Shown: piece by piece, positions 20,951 to 55,682 of the stretch
Position numbering within the stretch: position 1 is the first letter of the stretch
How the letters are laid out: every line of letters starts with the position of its first letter
From: an uncultured bacterium
GTDB lineage: Bacteria > Hydrothermota > UBA3073 > NMUJ01 > CBEVQO01
Reading direction: 5' to 3'
DNA length: 64,000 nt
NCBI GenBank assembly: GCA_965552055.1
Contig: CBEVQO010000002.1
Location: forward strand, 352,001-416,000
Notes under the pieces: generated by a model
Database searches by the model: none
What the model saw: the letters and a program-made list of their open reading frames with translations, nothing else
What the model was told of the DNA's origin: nothing
Made by a program: the position numbers and the translations under genes

Positions 20951-20984
20951 GGTTGACAGTAACAAAATATCTTTAAAATAAATG

Positions 20985-21749
20985 ATGAACGCAGAAGAAA
21001 AATTCTGGGAGGCGTTGAGGAGATTATCGGAAGAAATCGATAGATTAAGAGAATCGCAAAAGAAAACAGATGAGCAGTTGAGAAAAACTGACGAACAGCT
21101 GAGGAGCACAGACGAGAAGATAGACAAACTGCGAGAAAGACAGGAGAAGACGGATGAACAGTTAAGGGATACAGACAGAAAGATTGAAAAATTACGAGAA
21201 AGGCAGGAGAAAACGGATGAACAGTTAAGGAAAACGGACGAACAATTGAGGAAAACTGACGAAGGGATGAAAGAATTACAAAGGCTCATTAAGGATTTAT
21301 CAAACAATGTAGGTGGTCTTAATCGCTCGTTTGGCAAGATACCCGAAGCATTGAGCGAGCCACAGGTTGAAGAAAAGTTTGAAGAAGCAGGATTTAGGGT
21401 GCTTGGTGCATATCCCAATATATGGGGCAAATACAACGATAAGAAAAAAGAGATTGACCTCCTGATAAAGGCAAAGCGTAAGGGTAAATCTTATATAATC
21501 GTGGTTGAAACCCAGGTGCAGTTCAGAGCCAAAAAGGAAATAGATGATTTTATCGGATTTTTGAAAAAAGATTTCAGGAAATATTTTGACGAATATGCAG
21601 GGATGAAAGTAATAGGTTGCGTCTGTGCACTTAAATTTAGCAGAGGAGTTGATGAATATGCGATGGAGAAAGGTTTATACTGCATGAAGCCAGTAAAAGG
21701 CATAATGGGATTGATAAATCCAAAAAACTTCAAACCTGAAGAATTTTGA
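20985..21749 (+). CDS. Coiled-coil heptad-repeat protein with C-terminal PD-(D/E)XK-like domain, copy 1
   Basis: KTDEQLR heptads, then EIDLL...IVVETQ; promoter TTGACA 20953, TAAAAT 20974, ATG 20985. Confidence 0.8.
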   Translation: MNAEEKFWEALRRLSEEIDRLRESQKKTDEQLRKTDEQLRSTDEKIDKLRERQEKTDEQLRDTDRKIEKLRERQEKTDEQLRKTDEQLRKTDEGMKELQRLIKDLSNNVGGLNRSFGKIPEALSEPQVEEKFEEAGFRVLGAYPNIWGKYNDKKKEIDLLIKAKRKGKSYIIVVETQVQFRAKKEIDDFIGFLKKDFRKYFDEYAGMKVIGCVCALKFSRGVDEYAMEKGLYCMKPVKGIMGLINPKNFKPEEF

Positions 21750-21751
21750 AA

Positions 21752-22390
21752 ATGAATGCAGAGGAGAAATTCTGGGAGGCGTTGAGAAGATTGATAGAGA
21801 GACAGGAGCAGTCAGAAAGGGAGACCCGAGCTCTCCGTGAAAGCATAGACAAACTGCGAGAAAGGCAGGAGAAGACAGATGAACAATTAAGGAAAACGGA
21901 TGAAGGGATGAAAGAATTACAAAGGTTAATTAAGGATTTATCAAACAATGTAGGTGGTCTTAATCGCTCGTTTGGCAAGATACCCGAAGCATTGAGCGAG
22001 CCACAGGTTGAAGAAAAGTTTGAAGAAGCAGGATTTAGGGTGCTTGGTGCATATCCCAATATATGGGGCAAATACAACGATAAGAAAAAAGAGATTGACC
22101 TCCTGATAAAGGCAAAGCGTAAGGGTAAATCTTATATAATCGTGGTTGAAACCCAGGTGCAGTTCAGAGCCAAAAAGGAAATAGATGATTTTATCGGATT
22201 TTTGAAAAAAGATTTCAGGAAATATTTTGACGAATATGCAGGGATGAAAGTAATAGGTTGCGTCTGTGCACTTAAATTTAGCAGAGGAGTTGATGAATAT
22301 GCGATGGAGAAAGGTTTATACTGCATGAAGCCAGTAAAAGGCATAATGGGATTGATAAATCCAAAAAACTTCAAACCTGAGGAATTTTGA
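21752..22390 (+). CDS. Coiled-coil/PD-(D/E)XK-like protein, copy 2 (shortest coil)
   Basis: Paralog of copy 1; ATG 2 nt after the previous TGA. Confidence 0.8.
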   Translation: MNAEEKFWEALRRLIERQEQSERETRALRESIDKLRERQEKTDEQLRKTDEGMKELQRLIKDLSNNVGGLNRSFGKIPEALSEPQVEEKFEEAGFRVLGAYPNIWGKYNDKKKEIDLLIKAKRKGKSYIIVVETQVQFRAKKEIDDFIGFLKKDFRKYFDEYAGMKVIGCVCALKFSRGVDEYAMEKGLYCMKPVKGIMGLINPKNFKPEEF

Positions 22391-22392
22391 AA

Positions 22393-23127
22393 ATGAATGC
22401 AGAAGGAAAATTCTGGGAGGCGTTGAGGAGATTATCGGAAGAAATCGATAGATTAAGAGAATCGCAAAAGAAAACAGATGAGCAATTAAGGAAAACGGAT
22501 GAGGAACTGAGGAAAGCATGGGAGCAAGCGGAAAAAGAAATGAGAGAATTGCGAGAAAGACAGGAGAAGACGGATGAACAGTTAAGGAAAACGGATGAAC
22601 AGTTAAGGAAAACGGACGAACAATTGAGGAAAACAGATGAAGGGATGAAAGAATTACAAAGGCTCATTAAGGATTTATCGAACAATGTAGGTGGTCTTAA
22701 TCGCTCGTTTGGCAAGATACCCGAAGCATTGAGCGAGCCACAGGTTGAAGAAAAGTTTGAAGAAGCAGGATTTAGGGTGCTTGGTGCATATCCCAATATA
22801 TGGGGCAAATACAACGATAAGAAAAAAGAGATTGACCTCCTGATAAAGGCAAAGCGTAAGGGTAAATCTTATATAATCGTGGTTGAAACCCAGGTGCAGT
22901 TCAGAGCCAAAAAGGAAATAGATGATTTTATCGGATTTTTGAAAAAAGATTTCAGGAAATATTTTGACGAATATGCAGGGATGAAAGTAATAGGTTGCGT
23001 CTGTGCACTTAAATTTAGCAGAGGAGTTGATGAATATGCAATTGAGAAAGGTTTATACTGCATGAAACCAGTAAAAGGCATAATGGGATTGATAAATCCA
23101 AAAAACTTTAAACCCGAGGAATTTTGA
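22393..23127 (+). CDS. Coiled-coil/PD-(D/E)XK-like protein, copy 3
   Basis: Paralog of copies 1 and 2; one M-to-I change near the C-terminus. Confidence 0.8.
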   Translation: MNAEGKFWEALRRLSEEIDRLRESQKKTDEQLRKTDEELRKAWEQAEKEMRELRERQEKTDEQLRKTDEQLRKTDEQLRKTDEGMKELQRLIKDLSNNVGGLNRSFGKIPEALSEPQVEEKFEEAGFRVLGAYPNIWGKYNDKKKEIDLLIKAKRKGKSYIIVVETQVQFRAKKEIDDFIGFLKKDFRKYFDEYAGMKVIGCVCALKFSRGVDEYAIEKGLYCMKPVKGIMGLINPKNFKPEEF

Positions 23128-30693: not shown

Positions 30694-30967
30694 GCGAGGC
30701 GTAGCCGAGCACATTACATATGGGTTGTGAGCCAACACCCCGAGCAAGGCACTTTGTAGTTTTAAAGCGTATGGCTGGTTTATTTGACTTATTACGGGAA
30801 AGGCGTTCATAGAGCTACAGCGGGTTTGATTTTTGTTCATCTGGTTGAGAGGGTGATATCGCGTTTATTAAGGGTAAGAGAGTAAAGAAGCCACATCGTA
30901 GTCAAGGCTGTGCCTTGCGAGGGGTGTGCACGAGGGCGGTGGGGATAGGGAGGCGGGGCTAAAAATT
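30694..30967. repeat. Dispersed structured element, copy A (long, 157-nt central insert)
   Basis: 30714-30743 is identical to 55597-55626; 30919-30967 matches 55634-55682 at 47 of 49 nt; inverted arms 30735-30752 and 30910-30927. Confidence 0.9.
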
Positions 30968-51542: not shown

Positions 51543-51672
51543 GCACAGCCCATTTGCGTTATAACATTTTTTTACGGGTATGCACTTTTAAAAGCGTTAT
51601 ATGGTTAAAAGTGGGGTTATGCGTGGGCTGTGCAAGGGGGAAGGTGGGGACTGGGAGGAGGGGCTAAAAATT
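51543..51672. repeat. Dispersed structured element, copy C (divergent)
   Basis: 51629-51672 is similar to the G-rich end of copies A and B; perfect 10-bp inverted repeat 51543-51552/51624-51633 and inner inverted repeat 51583-51591/51605-51613. Confidence 0.85.
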
Positions 51673-52178
51673 ATAGGTATATCTCTGTTTATAATCCATA
51701 AATCCCATTTGTAAGGTAGGGGTTGATTTTCGCATAATAACTTAAATTCTTCATAGGTAAATCTGTCTTTTTTTCTTTCAAATCTTACTTTTTCGGGTGC
51801 GTCAACTACGATTATCATATCGAATAGCTCTTCGAGCCTCCATTTACCTATCAATGCACAATCCACAACCACAACAGGATAAACACTTTTTGCAATCTCT
51901 ATCTCCTTTATTAATTCACAAATCAAAACAGGATGAACTATTCGGTTTAATTTCTTCAACTTTTCTTCATCTCTCAAAACAATCTCTTTTAGCGCTGGAC
52001 ATTTATAAACTCCGAACTCTTTTAAAATTTTCGCTTTTACTTCGGGAAATTCCCTAACTTTCCAGCCAATTTCATCTGCACTTATTACCTTTGCACCCAT
52101 TTTTTTGAAATATTCACAGATAAAAGTTTTGCCTGCTCCTGTTTTGCCTGTCACAGCTATCAAAAATCCATTAGCCAT
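51597..52178 (-). CDS. coaE: Dephospho-CoA kinase, with C-terminus encoded by repeat copy C
   Basis: IAVTGKTGAGKT, ISADEIG, LNRIVHP and VVVDCAL. Confidence 0.88.
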   Translation of the reverse strand: MANGFLIAVTGKTGAGKTFICEYFKKMGAKVISADEIGWKVREFPEVKAKILKEFGVYKCPALKEIVLRDEEKLKKLNRIVHPVLICELIKEIEIAKSVYPVVVVDCALIGKWRLEELFDMIIVVDAPEKVRFERKKDRFTYEEFKLLCENQPLPYKWDLWIINRDIPIIFSPSSQSPPSPLHSPRITPLLTI

Positions 52179-55577: not shown

Positions 55578-55682
55578 GCGAGCGTAAGCGAGCCTGTTAC
55601 ATATGGGTTGTGAGCCAACACCCCGACTGAAAGGAGGGGTGTGCACGAGGGCGGTGGGGACTGGGAGGCGGGGCTAAAAATT
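55578..55682. repeat. Dispersed structured element, copy B (minimal, 7-nt loop)
   Basis: GCGAGCGTAAGCGAGC hairpin, shared 30-mer, ACACCCCGA-ctgaaag-GAGGGGTGT stem and shared G-rich end. Confidence 0.9.

Follow-up and report, generated by a model that had tools for sequence, protein, structure and literature searches.

A modular, lineage-restricted intergenic repeat with mini-hairpins predicted to fold as single-stranded DNA in a Hydrothermota genome

The window, a stretch of 64,000 nt from an uncultured Hydrothermota bacterium (contig CBEVQO010000002.1, positions 352,001 to 416,000), contains three copies of a GC-rich repeat, designated A, B, and C (Table 1). Copy A lies between tyrS and a promoter-like sequence, and the TAG stop codon of tyrS (30959-30961, minus strand) is made up of the A/T tract TAAAAATT and the terminal C of the copy. 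Re-reading of the sequence recovered every part of copy A (30694-30967) that a first-pass annotation had described, including the left hairpin, the tandem-GA central stem, and the extension of that stem by GCAAGGCAC/GTGCCTTGC around 157 nt. Copy B (55578-55682) likewise had the hairpin GC-GA-GC-GTAA-GC-GA-GC, the same 30-mer as copy A, and a central stem closed by the 7 nt CTGAAAG, and its 49-nt right end matched that of copy A at 47 of 49 positions (95.9%). Copy C (51543-51672), described as a more divergent copy, had the right end; its left hairpin and 30-mer were absent, its stem was a different one (GCACAGCCCA/TGGGCTGTGC), and its core amounted to 28 nt, the right end alone. The coaE frame (51597-52178, minus strand) runs through this right end, so that its last ~25 residues are repeat-derived. 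The common orientation claimed for the copies held inside the window and not genome-wide, where 40 copies lie on the plus strand and 30 on the minus strand, and the claimed total of three gave way to ~70 in the host genome. The window also contains three near-identical coiled-coil genes in tandem (20982-23127, plus strand; 97 to 99% DNA identity over 300 nt), with more copies on contigs C5, C10, and C13.

Table 1. Positions of repeat parts in the window and of related features elsewhere in the host genome (contig prefix C)
Feature	Position	Strand	Basis or remark
Promoter-like TTGACA-N15-TATAAA	30648..30674	-	Points away from copy A, to 2Fe-2S/NuoF-type genes; sequence, N15 being the genome's dominant spacing
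Copy A left mini-hairpin GC-GA-GGC-GTA-GCC-GA-GC	30694..30710	+	GNA triloop, tandem GA; sequence
Copy A conserved 30-mer	30714..30743	+	Ends in ACACCCC-GA, 5' arm of the central stem
Copy A variable central module	30744..30918	+	Reused sub-modules (157 nt) between GCAAGGCAC and GTGCCTTGC
Copy A closing arm GA-GGGGTGT and G-rich right end	30919..30959	+	Four G3+ tracts
Copy A G-quadruplex motif	30934-30958	+	
Copy A A/T tract TAAAAATT	30960..30967	+	Putatively target-derived
Copy C	51543..51672	+	Without left hairpin; right end and tract
Copy C own stem	51543-51552/51624-51633	+	
Copy B	55578..55682	+	Short class, ~97-nt core
Copy B left hairpin	55578-55593	+	
Copy B 30-mer	55597-55626	+	
Copy B central GA-CT-GAA-AG-GA mini-hairpin	55618-55642	+	7-bp stem
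Copy B G-quadruplex motif	55649-55673	+	
Copy B A/T tract	55675-55682	+	
A/T arrays	C1:395730-395830, C3:49920, C7:27160, C8:87919, C10:26640		
Integrase promoter block copies	C7:29417, C10:26327, C2:13685, C3:55110, C2:149544, C5:117994		
IS1111-family element	C6:126344-127612		1269 bp

Profile HMMs of the two ends (E < 1e-3) identified 70 right ends and 82 left ends in the host genome (G000; 2.23 Mb, assembly 97% complete), and 69 of the 70 right-end copies also had a left hairpin. Above 24 bits, the ends formed 62 left-right (L-R) clusters, 7 L-L-R clusters, 3 left ends alone, and 1 right end alone. The copies were intergenic and occurred in both orientations, with core lengths, copy C apart, of ~61 to 74, 96 to 98, 154 to 162, and 180 to 463 nt, plus one of 124 nt. 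By crude ORF calls, the flanking genes were divergent at 23 copies, tandem at 35, and convergent at 9, with one contig end (68 rows, one row being a false hit), a layout about equal to that of the background (145 divergent, 225 tandem, and 38 convergent in 408 gaps). Covariance-model scores reached 148.7 bits in the host genome versus at most 22.8 bits in 100 relatives, which places the repeat far beyond chance; seven of these relatives gave chance-level matches, and the sequences, when read, contained no full element. A pattern search of 271 further genomes of the phylum detected neither end pattern, BLAST against 30 relatives found no repeat, plasmids gave no match, and viral contigs gave none to the right-end pattern and a single chance match to the left-end pattern. 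Judged by these searches, the repeat is confined to one lineage. No paper on the family was found in the main text of open-access articles.

On its G-rich strand, the repeat reads as an A/T tract, the left hairpin, a TTACATATGGGTT-type segment, a central stem with a variable interior, GGAGGnGGGGC, and another A/T tract. The main forms of the left hairpin were GC-GA-GC..GC-GA-GC (29 copies), GC-GA-GGC..GCC-GA-GC (20), and AC-GA-GC..GC-GA-GT (16). All 72 scored left loops, that is, those of the left ends fitting the pattern (5 further left ends did not), were of the form G-N(1-2)-A; 41 were GNA triloops, and among the tetraloops several fit GNRA and two do not. Short-class copies have a similarly capped central stem, with CT-GAA-AG, CC-GAA-GG, or GC-GAA-GC flanked by two GA steps. 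Across 14 short-class sequences, 98.3% of 179 cells paired, compared with 27 to 59% in slid controls, two-sided changes were found at 4 of 13 pairs, and none of 500 shuffles attained the covariation score, the covariation counts being inflated by the kinship of the copies and reflecting few independent changes. The GA-capped mini-hairpin occurred 87 times on the G-rich strand of the copies, 0 times on the opposite strand, and 11 times elsewhere in the genome. The G-rich strand folded more stably as DNA in 67 of 70 copies, a result to which composition contributes. Four G3+ tracts, constituting a G-quadruplex motif, were present in 45 of 70 right ends, and 46 of the 67 canonical G-quadruplex motifs of the genome lay inside repeat copies. 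The folding energy of the whole element was no better than that of shuffles (copy A, z = -0.4; copy B, z = -0.11); the structural signal resides in the short stems and not in the whole element. A candidate stable rod in the long copies was rejected as not significant (z from +1.6 to -1.8 in 22 copies).

The sequence type GCGNAGC/GCGNNAGC forms a heat- and nuclease-resistant DNA mini-hairpin, and the RNA counterparts are far less stable (PMC13037366, in the sections on these hairpins). Together with the G-N(1-2)-A loops and the covarying capped stems, this stability in DNA over RNA argues for selection on a DNA fold, and the G-rich strand of the repeat is predicted to form these hairpins as single-stranded DNA. 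What stands out is that the sequence clearly bears the marks of selection on folds of DNA and not of RNA, namely, tandem-GA-capped GNA mini-hairpins with two-sided changes and two thirds of the G-quadruplex motifs of the genome, all on one strand. The first-pass proposal of an unannotated dispersed family was upheld, in that the window gave no Rfam match at the gathering score, folds are predicted on the G-rich strand, and the tandem-GA hairpins covary; the family is not limited to three copies devoid of covariation, since there are ~70 and the stems covary.

The same annotation had offered a structured RNA as an alternative. Covarying stems and the tetraloops that fit GNRA would suit a noncoding RNA family or a set of leader RNAs, but the GNA triloops that make up 41 of the 72 loops and the two non-GNRA tetraloops follow the DNA rule, promoters at the 147 repeat ends point outward in 61 cases and inward in none, and the lack of an Rfam match, of polarity to genes, and of a whole-element fold beyond shuffles all make this reading very improbable. 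An intrinsic terminator was also rejected, as the T-tract lies ahead of the hairpin on the strand that folds and polarity to genes is lacking. Dispersed single-strand initiation (priming) signals, or loading sites for single-stranded DNA proteins in replication restart, would draw on DNA folds: the mini-hairpins GCGAAAGC and CCGAAGG are found at the priming sites of phage G4 and RSF1010 ssiA (PMC13037366, in part), and both loop types are present in the repeat. The G-rich strand matches the G-skewed strand in 43 of 70 copies, a weak trend that is not significant as a replication-strand bias (p = 0.07), and the absence of the family from all 271 relatives and its selfish-looking modular decay and nesting leave a priming role scarcely probable.

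Permutation tests on 67 copies resolved three linkage blocks, namely, the left hairpin, the central module, and the last variable base together with the right tract. The left hairpin was linked to position -2 (p = 0.002) and not to body class (p about 0.3), the left and right parts of the central module were linked to each other (p = 0.002), and the last variable base and right tract showed no link to either of the other blocks. The centre had been called swappable, and it does assort independently; one orthologous locus also differs between strains. To assess inheritance, 32 of the 67 copies were grouped into 16 disjoint close pairs with identities of 90% or more. Inner variable positions were common to 0.81 to 0.94 of close pairs versus 0.32 to 0.63 of random pairs, whereas right-tract positions 0 to 6 were no more alike in close pairs than in random pairs (position 3, 0.56 versus 0.61). 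Tract positions +8 and +10 were more alike in close pairs than in random pairs, and position -6, within the GC-rich end, was weakly inherited, with an intermediate value.

The repeat ends read TTTAAT-GC and GGGGC-TAAAA, with exact ends uncertain by about 4 nt, and the flank logos were mirror-symmetric about TA (AAAATTTT-TA on the left and TA-AAAATT on the right). The left-flank TA had T in 73 and A in 75 of 77 ends, and the right-flank TA had T in 62 and A in 70 of 70, 8 right ends reading AA instead of TA. TTTAAT made up 42 and TTTATT 16 of 67 left flanks, the fifth base being inherited with the hairpin type. The mirror symmetry of the A/T flanks about TA and the failure of the right tract to be inherited with the body suggest that the flanking tract is a target site. 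Ordinary promoters carry the same kind of A/T tract just upstream of the -35 box. Genome-wide, TTGACW-N15-TAHAAT promoter-like pairs were seen upstream of ORFs, 204 at N15, 33 at N16, and 4 at N17; the textbook spacing is 17, and that of the host genome is shorter. A/T arrays with periods of ~11 and 22 nt (TTAAAATTTTTGAAATTTGTG-like) were seen with or without the repeat, also to the left of several copies, and are possibly phased A-tracts or duplicated promoter pieces. By eye, an interior module was inverted between AAGGCAC/GTGCCTT arms at C2:433462, C3:76399, C4:110100, and other loci, which suggests loop inversion.

Gene ends bear on a different reading. Among 26 ORFs converging on a right end, 23 stopped at most 10 nt from it and 12, including tyrS at copy A, ended at a TAG built with the last base of the element; left-side stops were scattered. 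The repeat could accordingly be a domesticated boundary element between transcription units, with copies kept alike by gene conversion rather than transposition, where the C-rich strand after the stop codon would be a Rho-loading site or the folded G-rich strand a block. C-rich, G-poor RNA loads Rho, Rho is present in the host genome, and no empty allele was found at the loci searched. We consider a boundary role unlikely, though plausible: no ORF converges on 44 of the 70 right ends, the overall orientation equals the background, and the folds that are conserved are of DNA type and lie on the opposite strand. In addition, the tract has stops in several frames, so that the close abutment could come from gene-end trimming.

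Among known families, BOX of Streptococcus pneumoniae and the REP/BIME/REPIN mosaics are lineage-specific intergenic repeats with constant outer and variable inner modules, hairpins, and copies in both orientations. The present repeat shares with them dozens of copies, constant ends, a variable centre, hairpins, and both orientations, but the tandem-GA DNA mini-hairpins and the terminal G-quadruplex motif are its own. REP sequences are defined by a GTAG/GGAG tetranucleotide 5' of a palindrome and occur as inverted doublets; the repeat does not have this layout, its end pairs are all L-R in one direction without inverted doublets, and the genome has no RAYT/Y1 gene. TA-duplicating MITEs include RUP, Correia, and IS630-type elements. 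The repeat also has TA on both sides in a mirror-symmetric A/T-rich context, but it lacks terminal inverted repeats inside the TA pair (ATGCGAG versus GCCCCGC), and no DDE_3 transposase was found. Four G3+ tracts characterize the pilE-type G-quadruplex recombination initiator of Neisseria, and the right ends with four such tracts resemble it in this motif.

The bcr1-bcr18 repeats of Bacillus cereus are 100 to 400 bp long, group-restricted, and present in tens of copies, with inferred mobility and a TTTAT motif (PMC6542083, in part). The repeat is similar in these respects and has TTTAA or TTTAT in its left flank, a likeness of descriptions rather than of sequences, but it lacks the TTTAT direct repeat at the right end. 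PATEs of the IS200/IS605 group are gene-less, form single-stranded DNA hairpins on one strand, and have a TTTAT-like motif 5' of the left end (bioRxiv 2023.03.14.532601). The repeat shares the gene-less state and the one-strand hairpins, and TTTAA/TTTAT lies directly 5' of its left end, with a fifth base that is inherited with the hairpin type; unlike PATEs, it has no hairpin closer than about 30 nt to its right end, its 61- to 74-nt copies lack the central stem, it shows no guide-target covariation, with a consensus on both flanks, and the host genome contains no TnpA or TnpB. The repeat resembles BOX/BIME/REPIN, bcr, and PATE sequences yet fails defining tests of each named family.

Like attC sites of integrons, the repeat has one purine-rich folding strand and GNA-type loops. 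It lacks the AAC/GTT core, the L boxes, and the cassette polarity given among the attC features in PMC5027507. The first-pass comparison with attC was not supported, in that a RYYYAAC/GTTRRRY core is missing from the copies, their orientation is not tied to the neighboring genes, and the attC sites of the genome are separate; no copy was matched by a genome-wide AAC/GTT plus L-arm scan or by an attC HMM. An integron-like array was observed at C9:28375-35975, with an integrase transcribed toward the array, an attI-like site, and cassettes with attC sites, which from reading of the translations are restriction-modification-like and nuclease-like; the array terminates at a half attC that is joined to the left end of a repeat copy. 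The best match of the integrase was TIGR02249, below its cut-off, and its closest relatives were integrases of other environmental microbes. Of the six copies of the integrase promoter block, two include the first ~30 codons, and downstream of the one at C7:29417 lie an attI-like site and a cassette-like gene.

These links between integrase and repeat are suggestive only. They would fit a relic of an integron, in which attC sites, through their variable terminal structure, gave rise to the left hairpin, and the repeat was spread or rearranged, as folded single-stranded DNA, by the integron-like integrase. In its favor, the half attC is fused directly to the left end (C9:35.9 kb), a full and a partial repeat copy lie directly upstream of the integrase, the promoter block recurs at six other loci (four by a scored and two by a degenerate left end), the GA-capped hairpin is also present in two attC sites of the genome, and attC bottom strands are purine-rich, often with GAA (PMC5027507). 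Such an origin is nevertheless rather unlikely, given that the repeat has neither the RYYYAAC...GTTRRRY frame nor L boxes nor polarity to genes, the true attC sites are few (5 HMM matches, E < 0.01) and stand apart from the repeat, and the integrase is 25 residues short relative to its nearest homolog. Moreover, the promoter-block copies are of common ancestry and not independent, and GNA hairpins can converge in any site that folds as single-stranded DNA.

The IS1111-family element of the genome was cleanly absent from contigs of three of four runs, with a 3-nt core AAG, an empty site that implies recent mobility. Its sub-terminal repeats lie 7 and 3 nt inside the core copies, the layout of the IS1111 family (PMC11187229, in part). 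Two loop segments of the hairpin downstream of it, with the sequences GTCAAG and AATTTAG, correspond to the halves of its site, GTCAAG and CTAAAT. In a relative in a TA06 genome (L045), the loops TGTCAAG and GACGGTG match its own flanks, one loop being kept and the other changing together with the flank. Since the CTTGAC -35 box reads GTCAAG in reverse, insertion just upstream of promoters is predicted, the guide putatively reading the -35 hexamer. The host genome holds 13 sites GTCAAGCTAAA, and a brief literature search found no account of -35 targeting by IS1111. For bridge-RNA biology, this recently mobile element, if it reads the -35 box, may be of greater importance than the repeat. A variant of its RNA hairpin followed by a T-run was seen at C5:37460-37522, behind an rRNA-like sequence and with a repeat copy directly to its right, and is possibly reused as a terminator.

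That the repeat is a miniature derivative or passenger of this element, moved by its RNA-guided transposase, is largely refuted and highly improbable. The IS110/IS1111-type enzyme is the sole transposase among the families searched and its element was recently mobile, the right half of the IS target (CTAAAT) resembles the right flank of the repeat, a few left ends abut sequence like the IS left end, an IS RNA-hairpin remnant adjoins one copy, and ISPpu9 mobilizes a MITE-like passenger (PMC12288879). However, none of the 70 copies has the sub-terminal repeat, none ends in the AAG core, and no enrichment beside IS remnants was found, IS-end-like sequence occurring at 1 of 53 promoters near copies versus 11 of 454 others; descent from IS1111 was rejected on these grounds. 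The repeat is neither an attC site nor an Rfam RNA nor an IS1111 derivative.

In searches of the host genome for mobilizing enzymes, Y1_Tnp (PF01797) gave no match, its model having matched 6 of 14 control genomes, and Y2_Tnp gave none in a weak test, its model having matched no control genome. The REP/HUH-type mobilization first envisaged is thus unproven, in that neither a Y1 nor, within that weak test, a Y2 HUH gene was found. RVT_1, the TnpB zinc ribbon (Cas12f1-like_TNB), DDE_Tnp_1, rve, Resolvase, and DDE_3 also gave no matches, and only IS110/IS1111-type transposases were present among the transposase families searched. Three tyrosine recombinases were found, namely, XerC, XerD, and the integron-like integrase on contig C9. 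One repeat flank contains what we take to be a XerD-box-like sequence. A Tn916-like reading of the A/T ends was rejected because only the three tyrosine recombinases above were found. RNA-templated spread was rejected as well, there being no reverse transcriptase and both ends being constant.

Evidence on movement came from comparisons between copies and strains. One pair of copies at unrelated loci was identical over 159 nt, and three more pairs were at least 97.9% identical. On a strain contig (L038), the orthologous locus lacked the inner left end and had a different right-end type. Older left parts precede complete copies and older right parts never trail them (7 L-L-R clusters, several from one origin, and 0 L-R-R). 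Different loci shared outer flanks at 22 of 77 left ends and 2 of 70 right ends, the shared left flanks not being independent because they are mostly extra modules, A/T arrays, or paralogous genes. No empty allele came to light: among 12 metagenome loci, in a search limited to loci with a copy in the other strain, 11 mapped where the host genome has a copy, and the 12th lay inside a 1.2-kb two-gene block. In runs X1 and X2, the site of one young copy, a member of the identical pair, was occupied, and none of four runs gave a joint skipping the copy; flank-pair BLAST found no paralogous or strain locus joining both flanks without a copy. The first-pass annotation had held that a lack of empty alleles would favor a plain terminator or stability element, and such a lack was found in part, that is, at the loci searched. 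Two strain-specific blocks absent from the host genome were also observed, one of 1.2 kb (L041:2248-3424) that adjoins tRNA genes and contains two ORFs and a degenerate short repeat copy and one of 527 bp (L036:468-994) about 80 nt left of a copy.

The copy number, the intergenic position, both orientations, the two-sided stem changes, the loop rule, the modular assortment, and one remodeled locus are direct observations. The explanation that we propose for them, to which we give about an even chance, is a non-autonomous mobile repeat that folds as single-stranded DNA, lands in mirror-symmetric A/T tracts, and is reshuffled by recombination between copies. Against it speak the absence of an empty allele at the loci searched, of a mobilizing enzyme among the families searched, and of terminal inverted repeats inside the TA pair, as well as the 8 right ends that read AA. 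The mobile unit would span (A/T)T(G/A)CGAG to GGGGC and would insert into A/T-rich mirror-symmetric sites of the form AATTTT-TA-AAAATT, possibly with duplication of TA. Because the ordinary promoters and gene ends of this compact genome carry such A/T tracts, surviving copies would lie between a stop codon and a -35 box. The thermostable DNA mini-hairpins and the right-end G-quadruplex may protect or present the single strand. New copies would often recombine into old ones through the common right end, leaving an extra left end and a swapped middle, with a putative polarity of replacement and a presumed single-stranded DNA intermediate. The mobilizing enzyme would have acted in trans and since been lost, or would belong to a family beyond those searched.

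In a variant that we regard as decidedly unlikely, the copies are G-quadruplex-anchored copy-in cassettes, in which recombination begins at the G-rich right end and a donor folded into DNA mini-hairpins overwrites leftward from there and may run into the neighboring promoter. The occurrence of L-L-R without L-R-R, the excess of shared left flanks (22 of 77 versus 2 of 70), the non-inherited right tract, the remodeled strain locus, and the absence of empty alleles fit this scheme. If it were true, ~70 sites would exchange structural modules and promoter blocks without a transposase of their own. Lineage-specific intergenic repeats are common, and the family as such is ordinary. If spread of the mobile repeat through single-stranded DNA, or polar conversion between its copies, were shown, it would give mini-hairpin DNA a natural role and the compact genome a means of promoter shuffling.
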